Assembly (NCBI GenBank): GCA_050014495.1
Contig: JBEKDF010000014.1
Coordinates: 30,218 to 94,217, forward strand
Length of the DNA stretch: 64,000 bases
From: Candidatus Bathyarchaeia archaeon
Lineage (GTDB): Archaea; Thermoproteota; Bathyarchaeia; TCS64
Direction of reading: 5' to 3'
This document shows, in pieces, positions 31,038 to 59,850 of the stretch (positions are counted from its first letter, which is position 1; each line of letters opens with the position of its first letter). The position numbers and the translations under genes are program-made. Below the pieces are notes generated by a model, which had not been told where the DNA came from, searched no databases, and saw only the letters and a list, made by a program, of their open reading frames with translations.

Positions 31038-31219
31038 TAATTCTACTAATTATCGAGTGTGCAAATGTCGCGCACGCAATAAAGATCCTCTGTAAATCCA
31101 GTCATCTGTCACTTAAGATTTAAGTTACTGGAACTTACCAAATGACGCGTGCGCGAAACCCTAAGCTTATCAAAGTATATGCCGAAGAACACATGAAAAG
31201 TAGATTCATATCTTAAAGC

Positions 31220-31263
31220 AATAAAAAAAATTTAAAAAAAATAACGTAGCGGATTTTTCCGCT
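31220..31263 (-). terminator. Hairpin plus T-tract terminator of the small zinc-ribbon gene
   Basis: AGCGGA-AAAA-TCCGCT stem-loop followed on the minus strand by TTTTTTT-AAA-TTTTTTTT. Confidence 0.55.
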
Positions 31264-31283
31264 TCTCGGTCACTTGACTCGGT

Positions 31284-31454
31284 CTAGAACCTTCTCGGTG
31301 GCCTGTGTTTAGCGAAGCATTCTTGGCAGTAGACTGGCCGACCCTCTGTTGGCTTGAAGGGGACTTCCGTCTCCTTTCCGCAGTCAGAGCAAATGACTTT
31401 CGTCATCTCGCGCGGTCCACTGTTATAGTTACTTCGACTATCTCTATATCCCAT
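31284..31454 (-). CDS. CxxC-x17-CxxC zinc-ribbon small protein (56 aa, absent from ORF track)
   Basis: MGYRDSRSNYNSGPREMTKVICSDCGKETEVPFKPTEGRPVYCQECFAKHRPPRRF; AGGAG ribosome site upstream. Confidence 0.92.
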   Translation of the reverse strand: MGYRDSRSNYNSGPREMTKVICSDCGKETEVPFKPTEGRPVYCQECFAKHRPPRRF

Positions 31455-31631
31455 TTTTTGTTTCTCCTTTTGTACACGGCAACCGTAAGGTTTCCAATAT
31501 ACGCCTTGTCATGACAGCCCCCGACTTTTAAACATATGCTTACTTTAAATTTAAAATGACATTAAGCACGCGTGACAATTTCACCAGAAGTTCGGGTAAA
31601 CCTTATGAAATGTGACATTAACTTAGAGATT

Positions 31632-32552
31632 ATGTCAAGGATTGCAACAAAACAAGCTATAAAGAGCTTCTCGAAAAAGATTAGTTATCTTCTCTACATC
31701 CCCGAGGGATATGACGTTAAAAGTAAGCGGATGTGGCCTCTCATAGTCTTCCTGCATGGCGCGGGGGAAAGGGGAGACGATCTAGAGCTTGTCAAGATAC
31801 ATGGCCCACCAAAGCTCATCGAGGCGGGGAGGAAAATGCCATTCGTTGTCGTTTCGCCCCAGCTCCCCATTGGGGAGTGGTGGTCCCCGGATATGGTAGC
31901 ATGGCTCGTCAATTACATTCTGGGGGATTTGAAGGTGGACCCGTATCGCGTCTACCTCACTGGACTTAGCATGGGTGGCTATGGTACGTGGGAGACGGCA
32001 TCAAAGTACCCTGAGCTCTTCGCCGCGATAGCACCAATCTGTGGCCGTGGTGATCCAACATCTGCCTGGAAGCTCCGACATATACCCACCTGGATATTTC
32101 ATGGTGCCAAGGACACGGTCGTACCCATCAAACACTCGTACGACATGAACAAGGCTCTCAAACAGTATGGTAATGTCAAATACACGGTCTACCCCGAGGC
32201 GGACCACGACAGCTGGACCGAAACTTACCTTAATGAGGAGCTCTATAGTTGGTTCCTCAGTCATAAAAGGTTCAGATACCCAGAATTTTACGAACCAGAG
32301 AACCCTGAAAAATATGTTGGGAGATACAGCTCGAAGGAGAACTCGGCTGAATTTTCTCTCAAGGATGGGATACTGTATATCGCATTAGAGACGAGCGGTA
32401 ACAAGGAGCTGCCTTTGAAGCCAGTTGGGAACAATTCCTTCACCTTCGGAGACTTTGGTACATATGAGGTTAGGTTCGTGCCAGAAGGCACTAACAACTA
32501 CCCTAAAGTATTCGTCTATGAGAGGTTCGCATACTATCTAAGGGTCAAATAG
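31632..32552 (+). CDS. Alpha/beta hydrolase (esterase/peptidase, Tm-EstA-like) with C-terminal extension
   Basis: FLHGAGERG, GLSMGG nucleophile, FHGAKD and DHDSW motifs. Confidence 0.85.
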   Translation: MSRIATKQAIKSFSKKISYLLYIPEGYDVKSKRMWPLIVFLHGAGERGDDLELVKIHGPPKLIEAGRKMPFVVVSPQLPIGEWWSPDMVAWLVNYILGDLKVDPYRVYLTGLSMGGYGTWETASKYPELFAAIAPICGRGDPTSAWKLRHIPTWIFHGAKDTVVPIKHSYDMNKALKQYGNVKYTVYPEADHDSWTETYLNEELYSWFLSHKRFRYPEFYEPENPEKYVGRYSSKENSAEFSLKDGILYIALETSGNKELPLKPVGNNSFTFGDFGTYEVRFVPEGTNNYPKVFVYERFAYYLRVK

Positions 32553-32554
32553 CC

Positions 32555-32914
32555 TCAATTTTTCTGAACTAACTGAATTAGGAATCCGTGAGGGTCCCTG
32601 ATGGTAGCGAGGCGTCGCCCAGTCGCCTTGTTGTCGAGTGGCCCATCAACCTTGATGCCATTCGCCTTATAGCTATCACACAAATCGTCGAGGTCATCAA
32701 CAACGAATGCGAGGTGATTTACTCCAGGGTTATCGATTACACGGGTCTCCTGTATTTCGAATGAGATGAGGGAACAGGGTACCTTCATCATCGCTGCCTT
32801 TCCACCATGGCTAGTATACTCAACGAACTCGAGTCCAACCATCTCGTAGAATCGAACCGCTTCCTCTAAGTCTTTGACATAGAGGTGGACGTGATCTAGG
32901 CCGAGGTTAACCAT
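32555..32914 (-). CDS. VOC/glyoxalase family protein
   Basis: DHVHLYV, NHLAFVVDD and RDPHG motifs. Confidence 0.88.
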   Translation of the reverse strand: MVNLGLDHVHLYVKDLEEAVRFYEMVGLEFVEYTSHGGKAAMMKVPCSLISFEIQETRVIDNPGVNHLAFVVDDLDDLCDSYKANGIKVDGPLDNKATGRRLATIRDPHGFLIQLVQKN

Positions 32915-32949
32915 AGGTAATCTAATACTATCTCCGTATTTAACGGGCT

Positions 32950-34116
32950 TCAAGTATAGAGTTGGATGATTGAACTGTCGGTTAGTCTCCTATCGAGGCC
33001 AACCTTCTCATTAGGGAACTTTGCGGCCGTACCCCAGATTCTGGCATACTTAAAGTTCTGGTAGAAATCGTTGTGAATCATCCTTGCGAGCTCACCAACG
33101 GTGACTGGACCCCGAAAGACCATTGGAACCTTTGCCGGTTCATCCCCTGGTTCCTTCGTGTAGACGCGTGTTATGTCAAGGAGCCTGAAGAGTCTCTCCC
33201 CGAGTGCAGTAGCAAGGTTAGATGCGTGTTCAGTGGATGCGATTATTACATCTAGGGGTTCCGCTGCCAACTGGAGTTGTTCGATTGTTCTTCTGTCGGG
33301 TCTTAGGTCGGCTTTGTTCGCTAGGATCAGGGAGGGGCGGTACACGGTGTTACCGAAGATGGCTTCCTCCACGGTTTCTAGGGTCACCCTACCCTTAATC
33401 CTGACGAGGGCGGAACGTATCTTGTAGCCATTGAGAAGTTCGATGACGTCCTCTGTTGAACAGTCGACCAACTCCCCCTCCCAGATGAACTGTATCTGGG
33501 TCCCCGCTCTCTTCTCAATCTCGACCTCTCCCATTGGTCTCGTTATGAGGATGCGGCTATTCGCCAGCTCCTCTGCAATCATAAGGTAGTTACCTGCGGG
33601 GTCGTCACGGACATCGACTACTATTATTATGGCGTCGGCATTTCGAGTCATGCTTAGCTTCATGAAACCGTCTGACCTGCCCTCGCTGCTACCCTCGACA
33701 ATGGCCGGCACTTCGACTAGCTGGAACTGGATGTCTTTGTAGGGGAGCATCCCCGGAACGGGTGTTTTCGTACCGTATGGATAGGGTGTGACCTCAACCT
33801 GTGCGTTTGTTACCGCTCGGAGGAGGCTACTGCGGCCCACATTAGTTGGTCCTATGACCGCTACCTGCGCAGCGCCTGCCTTTGGGACGAAGTAGGTCGC
33901 TGCACTACCAGGTTTCTGAGTTCGCTTCTTTCGCTCTATATCCTCTCGGAGTGCTGCCATCTGCTTCTTTACTTGACTGCACATCCTCTCCGTCCCTTTG
34001 TGCTTGGGTACGATGCTGAGGAACTCTCTCATGAGGCAAAGTCTCTCATCAGGATTGCGAGTAAGGGTGACCTCGTTCCACTTCTCCTTGGCCCGTGGTG
34101 GGAGATTTGTAACCAA
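32950..34116 (-). CDS. DRG/OBG-like GTP-binding protein with TGS domain
   Basis: PKHKGTE, GPTNVGRS, NKAD, RVYTKEPG and YARIWG motifs. Confidence 0.88.
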   Translation of the reverse strand: MVTNLPPRAKEKWNEVTLTRNPDERLCLMREFLSIVPKHKGTERMCSQVKKQMAALREDIERKKRTQKPGSAATYFVPKAGAAQVAVIGPTNVGRSSLLRAVTNAQVEVTPYPYGTKTPVPGMLPYKDIQFQLVEVPAIVEGSSEGRSDGFMKLSMTRNADAIIIVVDVRDDPAGNYLMIAEELANSRILITRPMGEVEIEKRAGTQIQFIWEGELVDCSTEDVIELLNGYKIRSALVRIKGRVTLETVEEAIFGNTVYRPSLILANKADLRPDRRTIEQLQLAAEPLDVIIASTEHASNLATALGERLFRLLDITRVYTKEPGDEPAKVPMVFRGPVTVGELARMIHNDFYQNFKYARIWGTAAKFPNEKVGLDRRLTDSSIIQLYT

Positions 34117-34361
34117 GTCTGGTCACCTACCTAAACATTGAGGAGAGAGTCTATTAAAAACCCACATTACCAAGAAATTTAGGAATAAGAACAAATGAGA
34201 TATTTTATGCGCGTGTAGATATGAACTCAGTTTTCGTATAAAGAAAGCCTACCTTGCTAAAGCCACATCCTACACGCATCGAGCATATCGCATGAGTCGC
34301 GCTTGATAGGACATACTTATAACGCAACTTGCTAAGTGTAAGTTAGAATTGGTGATATTAT

Positions 34362-34982
34362 ATGCCATCCATGTCTCAGGCGAAGACTCTTGGTGAGGTA
34401 GGTTCGATTCTGGTCGTTCTCACGGCTATACCTAGCATAGGGGGTTTGCTTGGAATAGCCGGATTCATATTGATTCTACTTGCGATAAAAGACATTTCTG
34501 AGGTTGTAGCAGACAAATCGATCTATCATAACATGCTAGTGTCGATCGTCTTCGCGATTGCGGGCGTAATCATTGGGACGCTGGTCGTAGTTGGTAGTGT
34601 GTTTAGATTCATAGGACTTGCAAGCTTGACGGGACCAAATTACTTTGGGTCGAGCTTCAATCCCTCAACTATTCCTACAGGTGATTGGATCGGTTTCATT
34701 ATGTCGATTATTGTAGGACTCACGGTGATATGGGTCATGATGATTGTCTCAGCGTTCTTCGTAAGAAAAAGCTACAACGCTATTGCCTCGAAGCTGAATA
34801 TAGGCATGTTTGGAACTGCAGGCTTAGTGTATTTGATAGGAGCAGCCACGACGATCATTCTAGTTGGGTTCGTCATCCTATTCATAGCGCAAATCCTTTT
34901 GATTGTCGCGTTCTTCTCGATTGATGATAGAACTCCTGTAATATCTACTCAACCCATTCAGCCAACCACGGTCAATCCATAA
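34362..34982 (+). CDS. DUF996 family membrane protein
   Basis: AKTLG..GSIL N-terminus, FGTAGLVYLIGA...IVAFFSI and multiple TM helices. Confidence 0.8.
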   Translation: MPSMSQAKTLGEVGSILVVLTAIPSIGGLLGIAGFILILLAIKDISEVVADKSIYHNMLVSIVFAIAGVIIGTLVVVGSVFRFIGLASLTGPNYFGSSFNPSTIPTGDWIGFIMSIIVGLTVIWVMMIVSAFFVRKSYNAIASKLNIGMFGTAGLVYLIGAATTIILVGFVILFIAQILLIVAFFSIDDRTPVISTQPIQPTTVNP

Positions 34983-35175
34983 TAAATTAGGTAGGCATTA
35001 TTTGTTAAACCTTGGAATAATCCCGTGTGTGTATGGAGTAATAACAAAAAGCTGAACTTCTTACTTCAAGTCCAGATCTTCCCCCGCTGACGCGCTTTTA
35101 CTAAAAAGACGTCGTTTACCCGGGTAAGAATTGATCAATTATTTAAATAAATTAGTTGTCATTGATGTGTTTGCA

Positions 35176-35925
35176 ATGAAGAACCTATTGTATAAGTTGA
35201 CTCGACCCGAGATCGAGGAGTACCTCAGAAACAGTGATGTTGTACTCTTCCCCGTTGGCTCAACGGAGCAACATGGAAAACATATGGCAATCGACAACGA
35301 TGCCTTTACAGCCCTCGAGATATCAAAGAGAGTAGCGGAGAAGACCGGTGTATTAGTGGCCCCCGTGATGCCTTTTGGCTATTCAATCCACCACATGAAG
35401 TTCGCTGGGTCTATTACTTTAAAATTCGAGACGCTGGTCGCCGTCTACAAAGAGGTCTGTGAGAGTCTCATACATCATGGCTTCAAGAAGATAGTCATCA
35501 TGAATGGACACGGCGGAAACATCAACGCCGTGAACCAGGCCCTTCGAGAGGTTAGAAGCGAACAGGGAGTGATCGTTTACAACGTCATGGTGTTTCCGAT
35601 GGAGGATGGGTTTGGTTCCGATTCGTTGAAGGTTTGTAAGCAGGAGTCTGGTGGACATGCTTGCGAGATGGAGACTAGCGTGGGGTTGGCTCTGGGTCAG
35701 AGGATCATAATAGGCAACGCTGAGAAGTGGACGCCCCCGAAGCTTATGACTGAGTTCGATAAAAAATATAGTACTAAAGTTGCTACTGCGAGGGACTTTC
35801 ATGAGATTACTGAGATCGGCTCGCTTGGAGATCCAACTATAGCATCTATTGAAAAAGGGGAGGAAATGGTCAACGCCGTTGTGAGAGAAATCTCTGAGTT
35901 TGTCGAGGATCTCAAAAAGATCTAA
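35176..35925 (+). CDS. Creatininase/MftE family amidohydrolase
   Basis: PVGSTEQHG.H, NGHGGN and HACEMETS motifs. Confidence 0.9.
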   Translation: MKNLLYKLTRPEIEEYLRNSDVVLFPVGSTEQHGKHMAIDNDAFTALEISKRVAEKTGVLVAPVMPFGYSIHHMKFAGSITLKFETLVAVYKEVCESLIHHGFKKIVIMNGHGGNINAVNQALREVRSEQGVIVYNVMVFPMEDGFGSDSLKVCKQESGGHACEMETSVGLALGQRIIIGNAEKWTPPKLMTEFDKKYSTKVATARDFHEITEIGSLGDPTIASIEKGEEMVNAVVREISEFVEDLKKI

Positions 35926-36132
35926 AAGTTATGTGAGCCCAAGTTTTCCTTTGGTTTGATCTGCCTACTTATATTTTCAAGAAATGGGGTCTAATCTCCA
36001 AACACTTGCATAAAAACTTACATCCAAACCTATTCGCGCAAAATCTCGTTCGAAACGGAAAAAAGTATTAATGAGTAACCCTTATTAAAACGACGATTCT
36101 TTTTTTGATTCCATTCGAAAGCGGGCCACGAG

Positions 36133-37398
36133 TTGGATGAAAAACCTAGGAGCATCTGGAGGACCAATTTAGGCATTCTGATGCTCACATCCGGTGTATG
36201 GAACATCGGAACCTACATGACTCTTCCATTCTGGGGACTCTATGTTCTTTACCTCGGCGGTACGCCCATCGACATTGCCCTAATCTACTCTGTAAGTTCG
36301 GTTGTCAGTCTATTTCCTTACTTACTTGGTGGTTACCTCTCCGACGTATTCAGTAGGAAGAAGATAGTTTACAGCCTCCAGTTTATGATCGCCCTTAATG
36401 GAGCTATCTACATCTTCGCGCCAAACTGGCAGTGGCTACTCATAGCCAAATCCGTTGAGGCGATCCTAACCGGTCTCCGTAACCCAGCGTTCAGCGCCCT
36501 CCTCGCAGACTCCACGACTGTCGAGAACCGGGCAAAGAGCTATGCGCTATGGAACGCTGTCCCCATCAGCTTCGGATTATTATCTCCTTACCTGATCGGG
36601 CTGCTAATGGATAGGTATGGTATCGTCTTAGCACAGAGATGGGCATACGTCGTTTTGATAATAGTCATCACCGCGAGTGGAATCATCCGTAATAGGTATG
36701 TGGAGGATACCCTGAGGAGTGATTCGAGAACGAGGTTAAGACTCTCAGACGTGATTGCAGGGACTCTAAGAAATATGAGGGAAACAATGAAGGAGATGTC
36801 TCGCCAGCTTTGGGTCTTATTAATATTGGGTGGGGTCTACCAGTTCGCAGTCTCGCTTGTAAGCGTCTTCATGGTCACATACGCGGTTGAGGATGTGATC
36901 CACATTACTACGGGGCAATGGGGACTCATCAGCACCGTTTCGACGGTTCTTATAATTTTGTCTAGTGTCGCTCTGGCTCTATTAGCAGGACGATTCAGCA
37001 GACGCACAATGATCCTAGTCTCCCTATCCTTCACTCCTCTCGCTGTTCTTGGCTTCACCTTCAGCATCGGCATCTCACAGGTCTTGCTTTTTTACTGTAT
37101 CCTTACCATTCTAGGCAATGTTGGTAGTGTGGCTAGTCAGGCACTTTTCATCGATTATATGCCTAGGGAACACCGCGGAAGAATCAGCGCTCTGATGGCC
37201 GTGATTGGATCAACATCAACCTTTACCTTTCTACTGAGTACAGGTGGCGTGTTAGGCTCGATAGGGAATATGGTTGGAGGTATTCTCTACGGTCAATTAT
37301 CCTACTCATCGCCTTTCCTGCTAATGGCTGCAGTGATGGGATTCGCCGCCATTGTAACATACATTTATGTTAAAGAACCAACCAGCCCTGAACACTAG
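36133..37398 (+). CDS. MFS transporter
   Basis: About 12 TM helices; GYLSDVFSRK motif A. Confidence 0.87.
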   Translation: MDEKPRSIWRTNLGILMLTSGVWNIGTYMTLPFWGLYVLYLGGTPIDIALIYSVSSVVSLFPYLLGGYLSDVFSRKKIVYSLQFMIALNGAIYIFAPNWQWLLIAKSVEAILTGLRNPAFSALLADSTTVENRAKSYALWNAVPISFGLLSPYLIGLLMDRYGIVLAQRWAYVVLIIVITASGIIRNRYVEDTLRSDSRTRLRLSDVIAGTLRNMRETMKEMSRQLWVLLILGGVYQFAVSLVSVFMVTYAVEDVIHITTGQWGLISTVSTVLIILSSVALALLAGRFSRRTMILVSLSFTPLAVLGFTFSIGISQVLLFYCILTILGNVGSVASQALFIDYMPREHRGRISALMAVIGSTSTFTFLLSTGGVLGSIGNMVGGILYGQLSYSSPFLLMAAVMGFAAIVTYIYVKEPTSPEH

Positions 37399-37593
37399 CG
37401 CGTATAGAAAGATACCATAAAACACACAATCAACCACGCACGCAACAGGAAGAGGATTCATTCACTTAAACGTGCGCGTATGTAGATAGAATCAAGATTT
37501 ACAAATAGAACATTTATTCGCGTGTGTAATGCAAGCATGGGATTTGATATAGATGCAAGCGTATCGGAATCAGTATTCGAGGGGAGAACTTCA

Positions 37594-38598: not shown

Positions 38599-38607
38599 CC
38601 CTTAACT

Positions 38608-39228: not shown

Positions 39229-39402
39229 TCATTAGCGCGCGCAAGACGACTAGCGGTTTCTCTACTGGATGTTCATACTTCGATTTGTCCATTAGTTGGG
39301 ACCCCGCGGTCTGGTCACCTATCGCTGATATATTCCTCTCGGTTGACTATGGAGACTCTTTAACGGGTTTAATCCTGATGGCGTTTGCAGCTTGCGATTA
39401 GA

Positions 39403-40632: not shown

Positions 40633-40809
40633 ATGTCGCGTTGGTTTGTCTTTTAAAACTAATGTATTTACACACTAGAAGTCAAATTTTTTTGTTTACT
40701 CGACTTCTCTGACTCGCTACTCACAAGATAGTGGATGAGGCTTCTACATCGGTTTTGGCTTAAGAATTCCCTCAATATGCATAGTTCTCAAATCATTGCA
40801 TGGAGGGAG

Positions 40810-40922: not shown

Positions 40923-42938
40923 TTACCGGAACTCGACAAGCCCCATCTTCTCGAGGAACCTGAAGTATCCCATAAGGTAAGCGAGATCACATCTCCCGAA
41001 TTCCAGCTCCACGAGACGAGAAACCTCTAGAAGGTTCCTCTGACCATCACTCCAGTAGGCAGCTAGGGTCTCAATTCCCGAGGCTTCCTTATGGATCTTG
41101 CCAAACTTGTAGAAGGCATCCCGATCCTCGGGTGACATTTTCCACGCCCACTGTCTCGTCGAAATAGGGCCCCTATATCTCCTCACAAGAACCATCGTTG
41201 AAGCCTCCTTCTCCAGCTTCGTTGATCTCTTTTTTCTCAGTTTCAGAGCCCATCTCTTCGACTCAGCAAGTTGCTTGATCGTCGCCTCAGCGCGGCGACT
41301 CTCAGACTTCGCGGATGCATGCAGATTAGAGACTAGTTCAGAGATCGCGGAGTCTAAGCGTTTATCACTAGGGGCGAGGCGCTTGACGGACCTCACGGCT
41401 GCAGCGGAGCGATCTACCCAATAGCCGATGTGGTTCCTTAACCTCATAAGGGAGTCTGAGGCCTCATCAGCTCCCCCGTTCGAAGCCGCCGTCACTACTT
41501 CCTGTATCCTTCCTAATATTGCACGCTTCTCATGCGAGGCTGTCTCCGACGCTATCCAAAGCGCCTCTTCGGGGCCTGCATCCGCTATGGAGTAGGCGTA
41601 AGTTGCGGTGATTAAGGCGACCTTTCTTAGCATCTCCGGATCGACCTTATCGATTGTGTCTGCACTTGTGTGGTAGAACTTATCGGGCCATTGTATCATC
41701 ATTGGGCACGCGACGCCTACCGTGGGGTCTGAATAGACATAGTGGTCACTCCCCCCGCTGAACGGCGTCACGGCGTGCTTGAACAATGCGTAAGTCGATG
41801 AGCCCCCGAGGTTCTTCGCCTCCGCCTTAACGGAGTCGTAGATCGACTCCAGGAGTGAGTTGACGTAGCTAGGGCAAGACTCGGGCGTCCTCTCCGCGAT
41901 TAGTGGTCCACCACACAGGTTCTGATTCTCACCCACCATATCTAGGTTGAGCGCAGCGACAATCTCAGGTATCTTCGCCTCATTCTCGGCGAGGTATGGA
42001 TAGGTCCCAGATATTTCTGGGACTAGGGTGAAGACTATGCTTCTCTTCGGCTTCCCCAGCTTACCCGATGATATTAGTTTTTGAATGGCTCTAGCGGCTT
42101 CCATCGAAGCGCCACTCCCCGACGCGTTATCGTTGGCGCTCGGTTGTGGGTGGCAAATATGAGCGACTACAATCACCATCTCCTTGGTCTTTCCTGGGAT
42201 AGTGGCGACGCAATTCTCCATCTCCCCCGCGTAGAGTTTAGAGTCGACCCATGCGTGCACCTTGACGGGTATCTTGCTCCTCTCTATGAGCCTCCTCAGC
42301 CATCTTCCAGTCCTCGGCGACAGGACGAAGCCCCAACACGGTGCCTCATCCCGGTACCACCAGAAGCTTGTGTACTTCATCGCATCATCGAGCTCACCCT
42401 CCTTGAGGTTCGGTTCACGGATCCACATCCCATCATACAGGATGCCTAATGCTCCATATCGCTCAATGGCGAGTTCCCTAACCCTCGAGACGTCGCCGTC
42501 CGTGAGCACGACCTTGTTCCTGACATCGAGGCCCTTGTAGTCGACTTCCTCTTCGCCATTCCTGAGGATGATGACCTCTGCTTCGACTCCTCCCTTAGGC
42601 GTCGGTAGGCTCCTCTGTATGATGCTCATCTTATTCTCGCTGAATCTAGCGAGGAAACGAGATTCTCCCTCGGGTTCGATGAGCCTAAGCTCTGCGTCTT
42701 CGCAGCTCCACTCCTTGAACATTGGGCTGCTCCAAGCCAGTGCCTTACCATCCGATTTATACTTCCTAACATCTACAGTGAGGCCGTACTCCATAAGCGT
42801 CGTAGCGGCGTAGCCCACGGCCTCTCTGATGCCTGGGCTAACCTGGATCCTGTGGTGTCTCGATATCTCTGCGACGTGGTTGAATGCTATCTCACCGGAG
42901 ACCTCTCGTCCGAGTTCCCCGTAAACTCGTTTGAACAT
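40923..42938 (-). CDS. M28-family peptidase / DUF4910 domain protein
   Basis: AHICHP..ANDNASG, PEISG, LDMVG, GGSDH and YHTSADT motifs. Confidence 0.82.
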   Translation of the reverse strand: MFKRVYGELGREVSGEIAFNHVAEISRHHRIQVSPGIREAVGYAATTLMEYGLTVDVRKYKSDGKALAWSSPMFKEWSCEDAELRLIEPEGESRFLARFSENKMSIIQRSLPTPKGGVEAEVIILRNGEEEVDYKGLDVRNKVVLTDGDVSRVRELAIERYGALGILYDGMWIREPNLKEGELDDAMKYTSFWWYRDEAPCWGFVLSPRTGRWLRRLIERSKIPVKVHAWVDSKLYAGEMENCVATIPGKTKEMVIVVAHICHPQPSANDNASGSGASMEAARAIQKLISSGKLGKPKRSIVFTLVPEISGTYPYLAENEAKIPEIVAALNLDMVGENQNLCGGPLIAERTPESCPSYVNSLLESIYDSVKAEAKNLGGSSTYALFKHAVTPFSGGSDHYVYSDPTVGVACPMMIQWPDKFYHTSADTIDKVDPEMLRKVALITATYAYSIADAGPEEALWIASETASHEKRAILGRIQEVVTAASNGGADEASDSLMRLRNHIGYWVDRSAAAVRSVKRLAPSDKRLDSAISELVSNLHASAKSESRRAEATIKQLAESKRWALKLRKKRSTKLEKEASTMVLVRRYRGPISTRQWAWKMSPEDRDAFYKFGKIHKEASGIETLAAYWSDGQRNLLEVSRLVELEFGRCDLAYLMGYFRFLEKMGLVEFR

Positions 42939-44127: not shown

Positions 44128-44133
44128 ATACTG

Positions 44134-50021: not shown

Positions 50022-50150
50022 ATCAGTTTCTTAAGCGGAAACAGCAGTAAATTCGATCATTTTAGTCTTTATACTCATTTTGACGTTTTATAACGGGCGT
50101 GAGTAGATATCCGCTGAGTTGTGGGGAAAAAGAAACGCGTACACGAGAAC

Positions 50151-50711: not shown

Positions 50712-50843
50712 ATTTAGGTCAATTATAGCCGATTCCCTGTTTGCAATATAACTTTTATCATCACTTTAACAGTGTGCATAGAAATGTGTGCGCGGGCATT
50801 GCCGAGATGTAATCTAAAAGTGTATTCTTGTTCTTGAACTGAG

Positions 50844-51146
50844 TTACACCCTCTCTAATTTGAAAACAACGGGTCTTAGGCCATCGGTGCAACATGAGAT
50901 CATCGATCCTTTCTTCTTTATCCAGGGGAAGTCTCCTCCCATGGCTAGATGGACTACGTCCCTTTGAATATCTGCCCAAGCCCAGCTGCAGAAACCCTCG
51001 GGCATAGCCATTCCCTTTGAGAGGTATTCCTTTCCCTCAAGCATTACATTGCATGTTGGCTGCATCTCCACATCAGCATATTCCTTGAATATCTCGTTCG
51101 TGGGGAGCTTCTTCGCGACAGTGATGCGGACATCTGAGAACTTCAT
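50844..51146 (-). CDS. TIGR04076-family cysteine-rich protein
   Basis: PEGFCSWAW and SCCTDGLRPVVFKLER motifs. Confidence 0.85.
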   Translation of the reverse strand: MKFSDVRITVAKKLPTNEIFKEYADVEMQPTCNVMLEGKEYLSKGMAMPEGFCSWAWADIQRDVVHLAMGGDFPWIKKKGSMISCCTDGLRPVVFKLERV

Positions 51147-51251
51147 TTTTAGTCGAGTAAACCGTAGTAGGATCGACATATCAAGATGTTGTATTCACTA
51201 ATTCCAGCGCGCTTTCAATCGTTGGCTCAATATTTCAATTAAAAAAAGATC

Positions 51252-51287
51252 TTACCTAGGTAATATCGAGTATATCAAGGTAGTAAT
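51252..51287 (+). promoter_or_regulatory. Repeated operator, copy 1 (TTACCTAGGTAATATC)
   Basis: 12-bp palindrome with a conserved flank; similar to sites at 54792, 57343 and 57745. Confidence 0.65.
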
Positions 51288-51359
51288 GTAGCCACGGAGG
51301 ACCCATATCCAAATCAATTATTCTTCAAATTGCGCGCACGCACGCAAGGTGTAATAAAA

Positions 51360-52640: not shown

Positions 52641-52809
52641 ATTACCTCATTTTTTTTAATTCAAGTTTTCAATGGATCTTTTGCTCGTACGATGGTTCCT
52701 ATAATCGCATAAATAATGAAAATATCTTCAACACTTTTTATAAAACTGTGATATTGATGATTAACTCATTATATATTTAAACATGGTTCATATTTGCTAA
52801 TCGATTCAG

Positions 52810-53250: not shown

Positions 53251-53572
53251 ATAGCGAGCAATTTCTTAGACTTTTAGTTCGAACTTATAATCAGCAAGGC
53301 TCTTAAGCTCCGGAGAGAAGCGAGTTTTATTTGGGGGGTGGAAATAGATCAGGACTATGGGTAACACCGAAAGGCTACATCACCTTGTTTACGTCGTTGG
53401 GGTCGCAAGAGACCCCAATTATATAACAAAATAGCCAAATTTGTATGGCATCTCAAAAGTCCTAGAGGTATTACTTGGGCGTGCACGCCCTTTTCGCGTA
53501 CTGATTAGCATAATAAGTACGTAAATCAATAATTTTAATTATTAGTAAAATATCATTAATAATTGATCACAT

Positions 53573-54016
53573 TTGCCTATTTTTCAAGGTAAAGGTAAAA
53601 TAGAAATACAGCTCCCAAAAACATCTTTCGCCCCACGAGAAACGGTCGAGGGAACCGTAACGATGTTATTAAATGAACCCGTCAAAGCAAAAGGGGTAAT
53701 AGTTTCACTATCCCGTCAGGAACAAAGAGAAACTTATAGTGGAGGAAAAAGGACAACAACATCCTATACCCATGTCTATGATTCGTCGAATCTCGATGGT
53801 GAAAAGGAGTACCCAGCCAATCAGAGGTTGGAATACCCCTTCAAGTTGGTAGGTCCAGTATTTAACGCGCCTTTTGACCCTGTATCCTCGTTGTTTAAAG
53901 CCATAACCAGGGACAAGTCACCGCCTTCAATGAAGTTTAGAGTCGATGCTAAACTCGATATTAGCCATGGGATAGACGTCAATAATAATGTAGAGATAAG
54001 GATTTTATATCAATAA
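53573..54016 (+). CDS. Arrestin-N/SpoOM-like beta-sandwich protein
   Basis: IEIQLPKTSFAPRETVEGTV.M.L..PVKAKG..V.L pattern; YPFKL and VDAKLDI motifs. Confidence 0.55.
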   Translation: MPIFQGKGKIEIQLPKTSFAPRETVEGTVTMLLNEPVKAKGVIVSLSRQEQRETYSGGKRTTTSYTHVYDSSNLDGEKEYPANQRLEYPFKLVGPVFNAPFDPVSSLFKAITRDKSPPSMKFRVDAKLDISHGIDVNNNVEIRILYQ

Positions 54017-54167
54017 ATCGACGCATGTCTAACTTACTAAATAAATATCGCATAAATTATATATCTTCAACTTTTACTAAGTAATTGTTAATTGATTTAT
54101 GGAGAGAGGTAGATACGGTGTAAGCGATGGTTGAAGGTGATGAAGAATCAGAATAATTGCTGAATTA

Positions 54168-54755
54168 ATGTTCATGAGGAATGGGATGAGATCAAGCCTC
54201 AAGGAGAGCTATAATTCCATTAGCAAAATCTCCGAATCAATTGATAATATTAATTTTATTGGGTTATACAGGCCCTGGAATGAGGAATGGAATTGGCTCT
54301 ACCTATTTGAATTGACAGAGCTTGAGACATGGCATGAGATAGATGCTCACTTCTGTGAAGAGTTTGGGGTGTATGGAGATAATCCGGGTCGATTCATTGT
54401 GAGAATGTATGAAGATGCACGACCATGGCTCACAGAAGAAAATGAATCGTTGCCTCAAAGCATGATAAGGGGGAGGAGGATCTATCACACTCAGTACTAT
54501 CTAAGCAGAAGATTCCAAGATCCACGGATGAGAGAATTTTATAAGGCTCAAGTTGAGCTCTGTGCAAGATTGAAGGGCATCGATTTCCTTAGTCTGTTTC
54601 AACCATGGAACGCAGTATGGAATTGGACCCCAGTCTGGATGATGGACTCGCTTAAAAACTTCATCGAGATGCGAACAGAGTTTATGAGAAGTTTTGGTTT
54701 TCCGGAGGAAATCACAAATCAATTATTAAGGTTCTATGAGAGGCATGAACCCTAA
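54168..54755 (+). CDS. Hypothetical protein with internal duplicated domain
   Basis: FIGLYRPWNEEWNW...RMYE repeated as FLSLFQPWNAVWNW...RFYE. Confidence 0.7.
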   Translation: MFMRNGMRSSLKESYNSISKISESIDNINFIGLYRPWNEEWNWLYLFELTELETWHEIDAHFCEEFGVYGDNPGRFIVRMYEDARPWLTEENESLPQSMIRGRRIYHTQYYLSRRFQDPRMREFYKAQVELCARLKGIDFLSLFQPWNAVWNWTPVWMMDSLKNFIEMRTEFMRSFGFPEEITNQLLRFYERHEP

Positions 54756-54791
54756 ATCAAAATACCATGCATTAAATTTTTCCTAAAAGTA

Positions 54792-54809
54792 TTACCAAGG
54801 TAACATCAA
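54792..54809 (+). promoter_or_regulatory. Repeated operator, copy 2 (TTACCAAGGTAACATC)
   Basis: Near-palindrome matching the 51252 and 57343 sites. Confidence 0.6.
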
Positions 54810-54863
54810 TATTATCTATATATGAACTCCTCCACGGAGACCTTGATTTAAATCAGTTTTGTT

Positions 54864-55205
54864 ATGAAAACGGGTGAAAAAATGGTGTTAATGATAGCTG
54901 TTCACAAGTGGAAGCCCGAGGCAGAGATAACGATAACCAAGGAGATGATCTATGGATTCACACTCCTACTCGAAGGAAAGCAGCCACAGGGAATTAAGCT
55001 ACAATCAACCCACATGAGGAGTGACCATGGAGCATTCTGCGTTTGGGAAGCTCCAAACAGAGAGGAACTTGGGAACTTCTTCAAGAAGTTTGGCCCAACC
55101 CTACTAAAGGCGACGGAGTTCGTCCCGGTCCTATAAGCCTTCCCAGCAACGGTCGAGTACGAGCTCTCGCTGCTCAAGATGATCACAGATTTAGCATCCA
55201 GGTAG
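54864..55205 (+). pseudogene. Small alpha/beta-barrel-like (DUF3303-like) protein with probable premature TAA
   Basis: HKWK...GAFCVWEA; after TAA at 55134 the frame continues AFPATVEYELSLLKMITDLASR*, followed by a T-tract. Confidence 0.55.
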
Positions 55206-55308
55206 GATACGCATCAAGCGCCTCAAAAATAATTAACTAGCATCCTTTCCTTTTTTTCATATAATAAACGAGTAGACTTTTTGCACGAGTAATTGACACT
55301 TTTTAGGG

Positions 55309-57318
55309 TTATTCTGATGGTCGGCGCCTTCGGACTCGCCAGCTAGGGTCCTTTATTTTCAGACCTGAGAGATTGTTGTCCTTTTGGATCTCCTTTGAGA
55401 GATTGATGTTAGAAATCAACTTACCGATGCCTGATACCTGAATCCCAAAGTAGGCTTCACCAACTATCTTGTTACCGGATACTCTAAAATTCTCGGACCC
55501 AATTTGAATACCCGCCTGACCCCCATTAAGGTGTATATTATTATTTTTTATAGAACCGCTGAAAAGTGCTCCAACGTCATCGTCCACGATTTCAGGTCCA
55601 GCCACCGTGATAGCACAGTAATTGGGCTTGGAGAGGCGGATTTCATTTTCTTCAATATCAATGTTGAACCCGGGCCTACGATGCTGGAAAGCACTCTGTG
55701 AAAATATCCCGAAACCAGCCTCAAGTTCTCTAAAAGGATAAGCCCCTTTGATGCTGGATTCTATTACATTATGTTTTATGCTAATATCCGCTTCAGCAAA
55801 GTTGTCGGTTACACTTATTCCTCTGGCACTCATATTTCTAATCCTGTTATTTTCAATCACAGTTTTGCAGGAAGAGTTCAGAATGTTGATCCCTACACCC
55901 AGATAGTATTCATGGTTAATCAGGTCTGGAGGGTATTCGGCGTCCTCGATGTCAATAGACTCCGTTTGCTCTGGTGCATCTTTGGAGATGTATGCGAAGT
56001 CAATGTAATTTCCTTCTATAAATATGCCACCTGGGAAATTCTTGTGTTTCGGATAGCTATCTTTCGGAGAATCTAGCCACACTCCACTTAGAATGTCACC
56101 AAAATTACCGTATTTCCAGCCTCGACCATAACCATTACTAATTGTAATCGCATTATCTCTAAATTTTAGGCTCCTACCGTGATAACCATATATGCATACG
56201 CAGTTGAAGTCTACGAAATGAAGATTCTCAATGACGACATCTGAATTTTCTCCATCTATTTCAAACAATGAGTCGAATTCGGTGAAGGGAAATTTCCAGC
56301 CTTTCTTGTACAAAATGGTGGATGGAAAACTGTTTTCTTTCCCTTCGCCTCGGATTTTAATGCTGTTACTTATCTTAATGGAGGATGTGCCGATGTCAAA
56401 CGTTCCTTTAAGAATTACTTCTTTGAAATTGTTAACTGCATCTTGAAGTGCTTGGGCGTCTGATTGAGTGTCATGTCCCTCAACGACGACTGTTCCCTCC
56501 TTCCGTTTTGTTGTGGCAGCTGTTTGTTGAAGGATGATGGGTGTTTGGGTTCTTGGCACTGATTTTTCCCAGTTCTCTTGGAATAGGTCTCGACACCATT
56601 TTAATGATTTTTCATCGGTTGCGGTGAAGCCGTGGTAATCAAAACCCCCCTCAGGGGTCTGGAACGCGACGGCGCACCTATCCTCAGATATGAAGAGGAA
56701 AAGGTTAGTTGAATCCATGGTTCTCTGTTCTGAGAGTGGCGTATTTCTTGATCTTATTAGCAGAGGTGTATCCTCAATAGATCTTAGGTTCAGGAACGGC
56801 CCTGAGGATATGTTCTTGTTCTCGATGATTCGGAAGTTGACCCCACGTTTTAGAGCGTCGGCGATTGCCTCTAGGGCAGTTAACGGGTACTGGTCGACTT
56901 GAAGCCAAACACTCTTTTGTGATTCTCTGATTGTCTCATCAACGAAGTATAGGAATTCCATTACATTCGTCGTGCAGGTGCTTTTCGATAATTCCCCAAT
57001 TCTTTTCACGAATTCTGGTTGAAGATTATTTATAGTGTGTTTTACGAAGTAGTCTCTGTTCTTTGCTATGAATTGCAGCTCCTCCAATATAATATTGGTC
57101 AACTCACTGTAAGGAGTTTGATGGTAGAATCCTTCCCCATCTTTGAAAACTAGCCCAATTTCCATTAGTCTTGATACGTTACGGCTTATCTCCTGGGTTG
57201 TCAGATTCATTAGCTTGGAGATCTCGGTTATTCTGAGGGGCTTCTCCTTGAGTAGAACAAGGATTCTATGTCTATTTTCGTTTGATATCTCGAATAGTAG
57301 GTCATAGAAGCGTTCCAT
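55309..57318 (-). CDS. ArsR-type wHTH/DUF1724-like transcription regulator fused to a right-handed beta-helix domain
   Basis: N-terminal FEISNENRHRIL...QEISRNVSRL and WCRDLF motifs; C-terminal repeats (IEGNYI, IENNRI, IKHNVI, IEENEI, IKNNNI, VSGNKI). Confidence 0.75.
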   Translation of the reverse strand: MERFYDLLFEISNENRHRILVLLKEKPLRITEISKLMNLTTQEISRNVSRLMEIGLVFKDGEGFYHQTPYSELTNIILEELQFIAKNRDYFVKHTINNLQPEFVKRIGELSKSTCTTNVMEFLYFVDETIRESQKSVWLQVDQYPLTALEAIADALKRGVNFRIIENKNISSGPFLNLRSIEDTPLLIRSRNTPLSEQRTMDSTNLFLFISEDRCAVAFQTPEGGFDYHGFTATDEKSLKWCRDLFQENWEKSVPRTQTPIILQQTAATTKRKEGTVVVEGHDTQSDAQALQDAVNNFKEVILKGTFDIGTSSIKISNSIKIRGEGKENSFPSTILYKKGWKFPFTEFDSLFEIDGENSDVVIENLHFVDFNCVCIYGYHGRSLKFRDNAITISNGYGRGWKYGNFGDILSGVWLDSPKDSYPKHKNFPGGIFIEGNYIDFAYISKDAPEQTESIDIEDAEYPPDLINHEYYLGVGINILNSSCKTVIENNRIRNMSARGISVTDNFAEADISIKHNVIESSIKGAYPFRELEAGFGIFSQSAFQHRRPGFNIDIEENEIRLSKPNYCAITVAGPEIVDDDVGALFSGSIKNNNIHLNGGQAGIQIGSENFRVSGNKIVGEAYFGIQVSGIGKLISNINLSKEIQKDNNLSGLKIKDPSWRVRRRRPSE

Positions 57319-57342
57319 TAGATGAACCTCATAGTAACTATA

Positions 57343-57360
57343 CTACCTAGGTAATATCAA
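57343..57360. promoter_or_regulatory. Repeated operator, copy 3 (CTACCTAGGTAATATC), upstream of the regulator
   Basis: Shares 15 bp with the 51252 site; about 25 bp before the regulator ATG. Confidence 0.65.
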
Positions 57361-57438
57361 TGTTGTCTGAGTAGCAGGGCGTATACGGACACCTTAAGTT
57401 GAAAAATCCAAAGCAGTGAAAAGAGGTGAATTACCGCT

Positions 57439-57705
57439 TTGAGGACATCAGATCGACCAAAGGTTGAACGAGGCGTGTCGGTGGAGATGGGTTCTAAAAT
57501 GTATGTCAATAGCCTCATAGTCTCCGATGATGTTCATGACCGCGTACTCTTTGATGTTAACCTGGGCGAACTAATAGGGTTAACAGTCGCGGAGGGGGGA
57601 GTCTTGGAGGTCAAGGGTACATACGGAGTTTTGAGGGTAGATCTGGCTATTGAGGAGCTTGAGTTAATGTTGTCGAGTATGAAGAAAAACAAAGACACTA
57701 AATAA
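57439..57705 (+). CDS. Conserved hypothetical protein
   Basis: DRVLFD.NLG...VLEVKG.YGVLRVDL; GAGGTGA ribosome site upstream. Confidence 0.7.
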   Translation: MRTSDRPKVERGVSVEMGSKMYVNSLIVSDDVHDRVLFDVNLGELIGLTVAEGGVLEVKGTYGVLRVDLAIEELELMLSSMKKNKDTK

Positions 57706-57744
57706 TTGTGTAAGCTCAGTTCGTTTAAGTAAAAATAATTGTTG

Positions 57745-57762
57745 TTACCTAGATAGCATCGA
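57745..57762 (+). promoter_or_regulatory. Repeated operator, copy 4 (TTACCTAGATAGCATC)
   Basis: Degenerate match to the same consensus, upstream of the SMP-30 gene. Confidence 0.5.
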
Positions 57763-57837
57763 GCTATCCGATGTAGTATCAGCTCCACGCTGATCTTAAC
57801 AGTGGTTCTGTGTATGCATTTTTCGGGGGTTGCTTGT

Positions 57838-58833
57838 TTGAAGAGTAGAAGTGGGTTCATAGTCACTGTTACAATAGTCACTATGTTAGTATCGCTGCTT
57901 GCCAGCGTACCTATAACGGTTCAGGCTAAAAATGTAGTTCCAAAAGTTTCGCCAGTGAAACTCTTTGATGCCTCTAACGGTGAGTTTCCTGAAGGCCTAG
58001 CATTCGATAAAGTCGGGAATATGTACGTTAGCGTCAGCTCACTTGGCCAGATATGGAAGATTAAGCCAGATGGATCAGAGAAACTGCTTCTCACAATTCC
58101 ACCTGCTGGAGGAAGCATGGCTTTTGGATTGGCCCTTGATGCTCATGGAGACGTGTATGCTACATTCGCTTTCAACCCAGACACTCGAGGGGTGTATCGA
58201 ATAGACCACAAAAGTGGTATTGCTCAGCGGATTCCTGGCACAGAGAACATTCTCTGGGCTAATGGTCTATCCTTCGACGATAAGGGTAACCTCTACGTAA
58301 CCGATTCTCAAAGTGGCGCAATCTGGAGAATCAAACCAAATGGGTCAGCGAAGATATGGCTTCAAAACGACCTACTGGAAGGACTGGGTCAGATAACTGG
58401 GTTCCCTCCCGTGGGAGCGAACGGCATAGCCTATTATCATAACAGCCTCTATGTTGCTAACACCGAGAAGGGCCTTCTTGTACGTGTACCAATATTGAAA
58501 GGAGGAATCGCAGGTAAACCAGTAGTCGTCGCAGATGACGCTGAACTGTATGGTTTAGATGGAATTACCTTAGACATTCATGGAAACGTCTACGGCGCTT
58601 TGGTCTTGCAGAGTGAACTCGTTAAGATTGATCTTAAAAATTCAAAAATCACGGTTTTGCTCACCCAGAGCGATGGTATTGACATGCCGGCTAGTCCCGC
58701 TTTCGGCACGGGGAAATGCAATCAACAGACACTCTTCTTCACAAACTTTGCGCTCATGGGCACTAGTCTTGGTGGCTACGGACCAGCAGTACTAAAAATT
58801 TGGATAGGAATCTCTGGGCTTCCGCTTCCATAA
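57838..58833 (+). CDS. Secreted SMP-30/gluconolactonase/LRE beta-propeller protein
   Basis: Signal peptide; PEGLAFD, ANGLSFD, ANGIA and LDGITLD blade motifs. Confidence 0.85.
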   Translation: MKSRSGFIVTVTIVTMLVSLLASVPITVQAKNVVPKVSPVKLFDASNGEFPEGLAFDKVGNMYVSVSSLGQIWKIKPDGSEKLLLTIPPAGGSMAFGLALDAHGDVYATFAFNPDTRGVYRIDHKSGIAQRIPGTENILWANGLSFDDKGNLYVTDSQSGAIWRIKPNGSAKIWLQNDLLEGLGQITGFPPVGANGIAYYHNSLYVANTEKGLLVRVPILKGGIAGKPVVVADDAELYGLDGITLDIHGNVYGALVLQSELVKIDLKNSKITVLLTQSDGIDMPASPAFGTGKCNQQTLFFTNFALMGTSLGGYGPAVLKIWIGISGLPLP

Positions 58834-59006
58834 TTTTTTTGAAAATATCTTTTTTTATCGGCTAGCATGTTCACGGATCGATATAATAGGTATAAACACA
58901 ATTTTCCTCGTGCACATTACTGTCTTAAAAGTGTAAAAAAGTCTCACCAGGTGAGCTTTAAAAATGAACGACTTTAAATCAAGGTGAGGCTCACAATTTT
59001 TCAGCT

Positions 59007-59555
59007 TTGCCCGAGCCGATAGCCTATCATTGCATAAACTGCGGGGTCTGTTGCACCCGTTTACTAATAGACAGGCAGGGCGTCCGCAAGGGGCTTCCTC
59101 TCCTACCAGGAGAGGTCGAGATATTTAGGAAGGATTACATCAGACCAGCCTACGGAGTTGGCGTGAGCCCAAGGGACTCTGGGTTCGAAATAATCGCCTA
59201 TCAGATGCGCCTCAACACGTGTCCGCATCGTAGGTTCGGTGGCTGTGTGATGCATGCATATCGCCCAGCAATCTGCAGGTCCTACCCATATGTCCCAGTC
59301 ATTAGTCAAGGATTATGTGTTGTGAAGACCTTTGACATGACCTGTACCGCCCTCAAAGATCACATCGCTGAGTTCCCAGAGGGTATAGTGCCGGTCAAGT
59401 CTTCGTGTGTTGAGGTTGAGAATGCCTATTATCCAGCTGTTGCAGCAATTACAGAGCGACTGCTGGAAGATGTTGATAAAGCATGGTTCTATAACCTAAA
59501 AACTGGTCGCTGGGTGAGGTTTAGGAGGCTCCTCCCAACAACACTCAACGTGTAG
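59007..59555 (+). CDS. YkgJ-family CxxCxxCC cysteine-cluster protein
   Basis: CINCGVCC...CP....C.MH..RPAICRSYP motif. Confidence 0.85.
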   Translation: MPEPIAYHCINCGVCCTRLLIDRQGVRKGLPLLPGEVEIFRKDYIRPAYGVGVSPRDSGFEIIAYQMRLNTCPHRRFGGCVMHAYRPAICRSYPYVPVISQGLCVVKTFDMTCTALKDHIAEFPEGIVPVKSSCVEVENAYYPAVAAITERLLEDVDKAWFYNLKTGRWVRFRRLLPTTLNV

Positions 59556-59686
59556 TTTGTTTTTGTTGTGAATAGCCTATCCTTAGATTCATTTGCTAAC
59601 TAGGAATGGAAATATTGAGCTAGTGAAGAGGTTTTTTTAAGAGTAGCCTGGTGCTATCTAAAGCTAGAAGATTGAGTTGAATGTGT

Positions 59687-59762
59687 TGGTGGACGCTGGG
59701 GGATTTGAACCCCCGACCTCTCGGATGCGAACCGAGCATTCATACCACTGAACTAAGCGCCC
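59687..59762 (-). tRNA. tRNA-Ala(CGC), CCA encoded
   Basis: Reverse complement GGGCGCT...CTCGG-TTCGCAT-CCGAG...GGGGG-TTCAAAT-CCCCC AGCGTCC ACCA; G3:U70 pair. Confidence 0.95.
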
Positions 59763-59850
59763 AACGCCGCAACACTAACGACTACTCCACATTTATGCTT
59801 TATGCGGAGCGCGCACGAAACATGGTTTAGAGACCAAAAGTTTGGCAATT

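Follow-up and report, generated by a model that had tools for sequence, protein, structure and literature searches.

The short GC tracts that stud the spacers of a Candidatus Bathyarchaeia archaeon genome (G000) mark broken gene adjacencies. The best reading of their origin, and one that we consider probable, is a telomerase-like, RNA-templated end joining carried out by a primase-like polymerase with its own small RNA. The window referred to below is the 64,000-nt stretch of contig JBEKDF010000014.1 that was analyzed; coordinates are those of the window, and no strand is assigned to the features listed.

The first-pass annotation, made from the letters alone, had described alternating purine–pyrimidine (RY) tracts in AT-rich spacers. 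All 14 tracts that it quoted are found where it placed them, and the spacers are indeed AT-rich, with 41.7% GC compared to 51.1% in genes. The frequency of the tracts exceeds the expectation from local composition: the 26 spacers of 31056–59817 hold 19 RY runs of 8 nt or more containing GCG or CGC, where 500 dinucleotide shuffles average 5.2 and never exceed 13. The tracts are real and enriched, but generic RY alternation proved too wide a description, the signal consisting of (GC)n and its transition-decayed forms. Genome-wide, pure GC runs of 8 nt or more occur 363 times in the spacers of G000 (5.8 expected), pure AT runs 51 times (51 expected), pure AC runs 46 times (23 expected) and pure AG runs 35 times (23 expected), and RY runs lacking GCG or CGC stay near expectation or slightly above it (494 vs 529 at length 8, 138 vs 106 at length 10). 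That the tracts decay by transitions was judged from the mismatch spectrum, because almost every GC-rich RY run lies within a few transitions of (GC)n, which makes a definition on that basis nearly circular. No fixed distance of the tracts to starts or stops was found, which rules out a promoter or terminator element, and tracts are sparse within 40 nt of starts. Their distribution among genomes is patchy, with 29 of 251 bearing them.

Comparison with the relative G012 connects the tracts to gene order. None of the 15 spacers in the window with conserved adjacency contains a site, whereas all 14 quoted tracts lie at adjacencies not conserved in G012, which bears out the contrast between core and accessory genes drawn in the annotation. 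Tract density is 0.07 per kb in conserved spacers versus 0.53–0.92 per kb elsewhere, about tenfold rarer where order is conserved, and among 613 tracts compared with G012, 8 replace 180–2324 nt and 0 are pure insertions. Among the quoted decayed tracts, that at 31069–31078 lies after an SDR gene, absent from G012 at that place, while those at 31145–31155 and 31566–31574 lie left and right of a block located elsewhere in G012, the latter at the start of an esterase ORF. Three further decayed tracts (37435–37528) separate MFS and Dak1 genes. Synteny with G012 stops at the decayed tract at 50135–50145, after tRNA-Phe; a decayed tract at 50784–50794 and GCGCGC at 51207–51212 lie left and right of a gene whose orientation is reversed with respect to G012; a decayed tract at 51331–51346 precedes an accessory binding-protein gene, and a palindromic one at 53477–53490 follows a relocated block. 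The quoted tract at 59809–59817 sits between tRNA-Ala and a proteasome gene, where G012 is about 2 kb longer. Three pure GC runs (14746, 15224 and 15715; 14744–15722) are found inside a 1.77-kb block that is missing from G012 at that place and from run X14.

Joints read against ~96%-identical strains reveal where the letters come from. Four of eight clean close-strain joints, a count that leaves out six joints read without their between-sequence, each from one contig, are deletions sealed by pure CG filler (2, 6, 6 and 8 nt; letters shared by both sides, 0); three of the eight carry no filler. At these four the filler stems from neither parent end, as in 8 further cases against G012. The clearest case, outside 31056–59817, is a (GC)5 scar at 20724–20733 in a broken asd gene (orthologs in G012, G008, G015 and G003), in which 8 new letters replace 536 nt (X14, both=0). 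The last 6 letters of the quoted scar GCGCGCGC at 39235–39242 replace 119 nt of the close strain (joint 39236–39243, both=0, runs X14 and X15). One close strain has its own deletion at 32409–32488, with 78 nt out and GCGCGC in, and a close-strain deletion at 41898–42123 took 224 nt out and put CG in between two CGCG. Counted with pre-existing letters, the total run is exactly 10 at three of the four filler joints, the two last mentioned among them, and 8 at one, and noncoding DNA of G000 holds 93 GC runs of 10 but only 4 of 11; tract length thus includes letters already present. The DUF996 block is bounded on the left by a quoted decayed tract (34206–34217), inside which the close-strain break falls, and on the right by a short ACGCGC (35089–35095); at this joint (34209–35089) 879 nt are replaced by 202 (X14, X15 and X17). 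For the lysC joint, the reading comes from the piece table. An assembly artefact was rejected, since an independent run gives the asd joint letter-identical and close strains have their own fillers; the X4 contig covers 17993–21224 with 0 differences. The suggestion in the annotation that the tracts are scars of past insertions or deletions is hereby supported and can be made more precise: four joints contain new letters, on neither side in the close strain, and the tracts are linked to loss or rearrangement of DNA, as junction filler would be.

A candidate template is a putative RNA of ~100 nt, a conserved multicopy sequence first seen in L255 and L257, where it lies at the 3′ end of primase genes, and present in G000 with 8 model matches (8 or more copies). 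Its loop in G000, GCGCAT, matches the commonest scar end, ATGCGC: scar ends starting with G are preceded by T in 297 of 468 cases (37% expected), and AT is the commonest preceding pair (133). Two predictions concerned other genomes. A GCGCT-type loop was predicted for G111, G081 and G143, the scars of which are mostly flanked by A and T among the matches listed, and the prediction held, a GCGCTAAAA loop lying directly behind a primase C-terminal piece in all three (reversed control 0); among the matches listed, A-type ends number 46/52 in G111 vs 21/106 in G000. The prediction of a GTGCG-type loop in CG-phase genomes held as well, TRTGCGAAAAA being found in four of six CG-phase genomes of the genus (G011, G016, G007 and G005) and in one of four GC-phase genomes. 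The RNA segment is complementary to the repeat plus its start in each case (in G000 GCGCAT/ATGCGC, in three genomes GCGCT/AGCGC, and in those of CG phase the TGCG type), and loop and scar ends change together across genomes. Flank bias is weak in G012. The candidate RNA has no match in the zero-tract genomes G001 and G010, nor in G013 and G009, and its C21 copy has 0 Rfam matches up to E 5. Some compensatory pairs are seen, and the predicted fold is no more stable than those of shuffled sequences (z −1.3 to +1.2), a point against the proposal; the case for a structure therefore comes from an outer stem that is conserved and from a few compensatory changes. The conserved block at 31226–31542 was considered as a template RNA and rejected, being a small ORF.

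The putative partner is encoded by a primase-fold gene (C53:7058–7861) with a PF01896 match above cut-off. Its 268-residue product is modeled with a PriS-like fold (pLDDT 90.8; PriS as top Foldseek matches, E 9.5e-12) and carries the DxD and SGxxGxH motifs and a third acidic one, with D99, D101, G149, G152, H154 and D205 conserved; these features place it in the archaeo-eukaryotic primase superfamily. Full-length members occur in five of seven tract-rich genomes and in two of 244 others, counts that are not independent and amount to an association in three lineages. A family-wide search gave any match in 14 of 61 and a full-length one in G000 only; the module is fragmentary and mobile. Its tie to the RNA is one of gene linkage. 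In G000 the intact primase and the closest copy of the RNA are 2.35 kb apart, and the copies sit behind other ORFs, which counts against the proposal. G011 and G008 have the RNA and no primase match, and with the queries used neither primase nor RNA was found in tract-rich G021 (one contig) and G286. Other candidates were discarded, namely a 439-aa PriS paralog on C20 (no match in either G012 or G021), a PF09250 Prim-Pol as writer (0 matches in five genomes) and the 5′ leader of the C53 primase as template (no GC template, fold z 0.04).

In the proposed mechanism, the candidate RNA would be transcribed, bound by the primase-like polymerase and copied at its GCGC stretch, so that GC repeats are added to broken ends. 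A DNA end would align on the loop through pairs of ATG with CAT, or of T with A, be extended, shifted by two and extended again; the self-complementary tails may then pair and rejoin the ends. A neighboring RNase H-like exonuclease could trim the ends, foreign DNA might be pasted in by the same route, and an IS5-like element would be a later user of the scars. We lean, on balance, toward the broader view that Bathyarchaeia and other Thermoproteota harbor a mobile ribonucleoprotein in which a primase-fold polymerase is combined with a template RNA of its own and, in many cases, an exonuclease. This complex would write self-complementary repeats and in that way glue together any two ends; it would be telomerase-like on a primase scaffold and loop-programmable, driving deletion and gene capture, with its scars exploited by two tiers of insertion sequences. 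As in telomerase and, as far as the portion consulted of its report describes it, bacterial DRT10 (PMC12632851), a tandem DNA repeat would be specified by a short stretch of noncoding RNA, through rounds of alignment, copying and shifting. The catalytic subunit there is a reverse transcriptase, whereas the candidate here has a predicted archaeo-eukaryotic primase fold and putative activity, and the repeat is self-complementary, at most 10 nt in G000 and placed at internal joints. We found no description in the literature of RNA templating by a primase-fold enzyme. If correct, the proposal would constitute a new way to join DNA ends and capture genes, using a fixed glue that an RNA specifies, as well as RNA-templated repeat synthesis outside reverse transcriptases, with the loop variants as built-in predictions. 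Even with the wrong enzyme, the scars would be a sequence mark of every rearrangement in these genomes, their decay giving a rough age.

An unlikely alternative is that a host enzyme, PriSL or the LigD polymerase, writes the scars during end joining without an RNA template, using terminal transfer together with slippage on GC pairs, and that the match to the RNA is secondary. This would cover G021 and G286 and fits the observation that about half of the ends that can be aligned have one or more letters in common with the ortholog, yet it leaves unexplained that flank and phase follow the RNA loop. By its general mechanism, Ku-LigD non-homologous end joining has in common with the scars deletions with added letters at joints and a primase-fold polymerase, and the Ku-LigD polymerase pair is present in G000 (Pfam and NCBIfam matches). 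To our knowledge, however, its filler is not a fixed repeat, and over five genomes its presence does not track the scars (found in zero-tract G001, not found in tract-rich G021), on which ground it was rejected as the writer. A reverse transcriptase was likewise rejected, none being found in five genomes searched and no PF00078 match in G000. The partial record consulted for PriSL microhomology end joining in Sulfolobales describes the same primase fold with terminal transfer, annealing of ends with 2–4 GC pairs, break repair and a C-insertion bias, all of which favor a host enzyme, but the insertions reported there are 1–2 bp, and neither a fixed repeat nor an RNA partner is mentioned (PMC12019639, PMC3333859). 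The candidate here is a stand-alone mobile paralog with 2–10 nt of alternating filler, and PriS is found in 10 of 10 genomes searched, tract-bearing or not, while the tracts are patchy.

Returning to RNA-templated end joining, its RNA could instead be a guide by which a mobile primase module finds or enters existing scars, as an IS110 element appears to do, so that the RNA reads scars made by another writer. We regard this as improbable. A guide too would co-vary with host scars, the fragmentary and mobile nature of the module is in its favor, and the IS110-type element of G000, with CGCGCGCT in its noncoding end and positioned at an IS/GC junction, is a precedent; against it, the partner protein is predicted to have a polymerase fold rather than a recombinase or nuclease fold, and no other writer was identified, a search of five genomes having found no reverse transcriptase. 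We give similarly little credence to a transposon origin, in which the tracts would be targets and footprints of an IS5/IS1182-like element that brings GCGCGC with it, or duplicates it, and removes the DNA alongside. The transposase of the flanked element scores above the PF01609 cut-off, and partial sequences match IS5 and IS1182 models below cut-off. In favor of this origin, GCGC lies directly outside 79 of 97 element ends with a decayed form at 11 more (19 genomes; unfiltered search, hand count), and some IS-adjacent tracts are missing in the ortholog; a flank figure of 64/64 came from hits filtered for GC-like flanks (64/98) and is left out of account here. Of the 459 tracts of 8 nt or more, however, only 29 touch a recognized IS end, and IS flanks keep the GC phase even in CG-phase genomes. 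Pure-insertion or duplication footprints number 0 over the 14 sites informative in the comparison with G012, the 3 compared with paralogs and the 8 close-strain joints, intergenic alignment being poor at 76% identity, and pairing of IS flanks to rebuild empty sites gave 0 pairs. Fillers of 2 nt and 78-nt deletions inside a gene are hard to obtain via insertion, adjacent deletion and clean exit, and PF01609 has no match in G111 and G286, where repeats may be unassembled. HIP1 and REP are short over-represented palindromes targeted by mobile elements; the scars differ from these in varying in length, not being conserved at orthologous places and being made at joints.

Finally, (GC)n is the classic Z-forming sequence, but it is very improbable that the tracts are retained next to accessory genes as functional signals, whether for Z-DNA, chromatin, methylation or protein binding, and the chromatin or topology signal put forward in the annotation finds no support, as tracts are nearly absent from conserved spacers, lack a conserved position, decay freely, occur inside broken genes and differ between strains 96% alike; GC-specific run enrichment and the lack of fixed position rule out a generic RY or Z-DNA signal. 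Instability of longer runs could produce a cap near 10, but the cap is not universal: runs reach 13–14 in G021 and G016, and 19 in G081.

The first-pass annotation had noted alternating purine–pyrimidine tracts in the spacers between 31056 and 59817, and all 14 that it quoted were recovered in place. In the 26 spacers of this range, 19 alternating runs of eight or more letters contain GCG or CGC, whereas 500 shuffles gave 5.2 on average and never more than 13. The suspected excess over composition is real, but it is specific to GC and is not one of alternation in general: across source genome G000 (3.11 Mb, 92 contigs, the window being C14:30218–94217), pure GC runs of eight or more occur 363 times in spacers against 5.8 expected, compared with 51 against 51 for AT, 46 against 23 for AC and 35 against 23 for AG. 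In spacers, GCGCGCGC exceeds a first-order model 192-fold, genes having been called with a custom hexamer model that gives approximate coding and non-coding limits. Eight-mers with one internal mismatch to the GC repeat comprise 702 transitions, 242 C>A/G>T and 78 C>G/G>C changes (about 35 expected per class), and because transitions, which preserve alternation, dominate, the mixed GC/AC/GT tracts are best read from their sequence as aged (GC)n. Non-coding runs in G000 have lengths of 6 (262), 7 (147), 8 (173), 9 (123), 10 (93) and 11 (4), with three longer; this ceiling near 10 is not general. GC6 and GC8 patterns are described as generally suppressed in prokaryotes (PMC4060949, in the part available), and an archaeal enrichment of Z-sequences of about 1.7-fold is given in a report whose available part does not mention Bathyarchaeia (10.64898/2025.12.30.697008); our literature search found no paper pairing 'Bathyarchaeia' with 'Z-DNA'. 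The nine closest relatives of the window's proteasome subunit, at 76–94% identity, are all Bathyarchaeia. (GC)5 is present in 18 of 24 family genomes against 1 of 16 others, and W(GC)5W in 29 of 251 phylum genomes, seven of which have nine or more in one phase.

Tract position was compared with the closest relative, G012 (76% DNA identity; 2.4 of about 2.55 Mb covered). Runs of eight or more occur at 0.07/kb in spacers of conserved adjacency (6 in 637), 0.53/kb between shared genes whose adjacency has been lost (31 in 290), 0.88/kb at boundaries between shared and unshared genes (115 in 604) and 0.92/kb between unshared genes (195 in 917), the contrast between conserved and broken adjacency giving p=3e-9 among spacers of 60–300 nt. 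The proposed preference for accessory over core genes thus stands: each of the 14 quoted tracts falls in a non-conserved spacer, and none of the window's 15 conserved spacers carries a site. No fixed distance from tracts to gene starts or stops was found.

What the tracts mark is seen at joints, the break points between G000 and a close strain. The asd gene (window 20557–21102) lacks its middle part relative to four relatives and carries at the joint a GC run that neither flank has in the orthologs; in sequencing run X14, from a strain about 96% alike, asd is intact, with 536 nt in place of eight letters in G000, none shared, and the independent run X4 matches the joint with no differences across 3.2 kb. 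At 39237–39242, GCGCGC stands in place of 119 nt, and a DUF996 block swap breaks inside the quoted tract at 34206. The close strain has deletions of its own, with 78 nt lost at 32409–32488 and sealed by GCGCGC (net loss 72) and 224 nt lost at 41898–42123 and sealed by CG (net loss 222). Eight clean joints in two stretches, six whose between-sequence is not known being left out, comprise four with pure CG filler (new letters), one tract-bounded swap and three without filler (lysC; 14072–15846, with six shared letters; and 38655). Including pre-existing flank letters, runs at the four filler joints total exactly 10 in three cases and 8 in one. Against G012, 613 tracts of seven or more gave nine deletions (eight of 180–2324 nt), four rearrangements, one replacement (9 by 12 letters) and no pure insertion, with neither flank alignable in 476, one flank in 100 and equal length in 23; paralogs within G000 gave three deletion sites at tracts and no tract insertion. 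That the tracts are scars of broken and rejoined DNA is highly probable; of the suggested past insertions or deletions, the deletions are borne out by joints with new GC letters, and no pure insertion was found at the sites compared. At 20086–21102, internal deletions have removed about 935 nt from aspartokinase and 536 nt from asd; X14 has both genes intact, so that the loss is recent. Some scars within genes keep the reading frame (G000 C3:76677–76688, 9 letters to 12; the close strain's net losses of 72 and 222), and the process can therefore edit proteins. The gene at 50841–51146 lies in the opposite orientation to that in G012 and is flanked by a tract at each end, which suggests that inversions are sealed in the same way as other joints.

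A candidate writer is a stand-alone primase of 268 residues (G000 C53:7058–7861; PF01896 above cut-off) with conserved DxD, SGxxGxH and D205, whose model (pLDDT 90.8) has PriS as its closest structural matches. Full-length members (E below 1e-80) occur in seven of 251 genomes, namely five of the seven tract-rich ones plus G167 and G196, an association that amounts to three lineages and is overstated by its nominal p. In five genomes of one genus (G081 C17, G111 C7, G143 C43, G167 C132, G196 C30) the gene directly follows radA; among family genomes, only G000 has it full-length. Two metagenome relatives of the primase end in a common motif, a profile of which finds copies in G000 on C21, C56, C40, C53 (two), C16, C15 and C62; a further copy on C24 is cut by a GC run. 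The candidate RNA (CTCACC, CTGAG, hairpin, GTGAT, loop GGCGCAT-AAA, GGTGAG) has no Rfam match, and its fold energy is no better than that of shuffles. The closest copy lies 2.35 kb from the intact G000 primase, and two of the copies lie behind a gene for an RNase H-like exonuclease; primase, RNA and exonuclease were all absent from the window. With 64 candidates scored per genome, the RNA model matches in at least eight of the 61 family genomes, the three tract-richest among them, and gives no match in G001 or G010. G167 and G196 have zero to one tract each; the RNA copy beside the G167 primase reads GGGC instead of GCGC, and that of G196 looks cut short.

The primase would copy the loop GCGCAT into ATGCGC at scar ends. 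Of the 468 G-starting ends in G000 spacers, 297 have T before them (37% expected), AT being the commonest pair; among the matches listed, A-type ends are 46 of 52 in G111 against 21 of 106 in G000. The GCGCT loop predicted for A..T-flanked scars has one match each in G081, G111 and G143, ending GCGCTAAAA and at most 24 nt behind a primase C-terminal piece, with none in G021 or G286 and none in reversed controls. The shifted loop predicted for the CG phase, TRTGCGAAAAA, occurs in G011 (three copies), G016, G007 and G005, and is absent from CG-phase G013 and G009; of the GC-phase genomes, G002 has it and G000, G012 and G008 do not, and one more match in G065, with one mismatch, may be chance. 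Both loop predictions are confirmed as far as such matches go. A guide RNA that reads scars rather than writes them would likewise co-vary with scar ends. With the queries used, several tract-rich genomes lack primase, RNA or both, as they might if a mobile module had been lost once the scars were made. On sequence grounds we consider an RNA-templated primase the best mechanism, and a reasonably probable one. It is outside the systems we found described: PriSL end joining on few GC pairs, with 1–2 bp indels (PMC12019639, PMC3333859), and ncRNA-dictated repeats made by reverse transcriptase (PMC12632851), each as given in the available part of these papers. No description of GC scars or of an RNA-templated primase was found, most subscription papers and supplements lying outside coverage.

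Many G000 contigs terminate in an IS5/IS1182-like end that has GCGC outside it. Across 61 family genomes, an unfiltered search gave 97 ends of this kind, spread over 19 genomes and flanked by hand count by GCGC (79), decayed same-phase sequence (11), an IS110-type element (6) or other sequence (1). Some tracts beside IS ends are missing from orthologs, which suits this transposon as source of the tracts and as user of scars alike. Against it as source, only 29 of 459 tracts of eight or more touch an IS end, no transposon footprints were found at the sites compared, filler can be as short as 2 nt, and the IS flank keeps GC phase even in genomes with mostly CG-phase solo scars; we read the element as a specialist on scars, not their writer. 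Ku plus LigD polymerase is present in G000 and in zero-tract G001 and was not found in tract-rich G021, and no reverse transcriptase was found in the five genomes searched.

Several further elements were observed. An IS110-type element (361 aa) lies exactly between an IS5-like end and a GC run at G000 C17:57457–58774 and C48:5775–7090, and likewise in G012 (C3 near 328751, C4 near 252648); in G000, five right ends are followed by GCGCG at this element. Its 5' non-coding end holds CGCGCGCT, AAGGCAG and ATAGGAG, with AGGGCAG for AAGGCAG in G012, matching that genome's own element end. By analogy with the part of PMC11208160 available, this has the layout of a bridge RNA whose CT core would be aimed at the scar/IS junction. 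G000 also carries its Ku and LigD-polymerase pair at C3:65798–67394 and a second PriS paralog (439 aa, C20:26050–27366) with a small ORF ahead, also in G013 and G168. Three related structured RNA-like sequences (G000 C17:14680–14860, C24:19670–19930, C11:40000; three in G012 also) presumably resemble SRP RNA. Window 31226–31542 (minus strand) holds a short, highly conserved ORF carrying CxxC motifs; it has several copies in G000 and G012, and here it has been relocated to between two tracts. Finally, the core ATAG[CT]CTTATCC has 149 copies in G000 (C50, C53, C66, C74, C75, C77, C84 and many other contigs), many ahead of DUF4760 genes in arrays, with a CCCAAA-repeat arm in 18, TG/CA arms in some and both orientations against one flank, which suggests either a system of cassettes or recombination sites or another type of written repeat.
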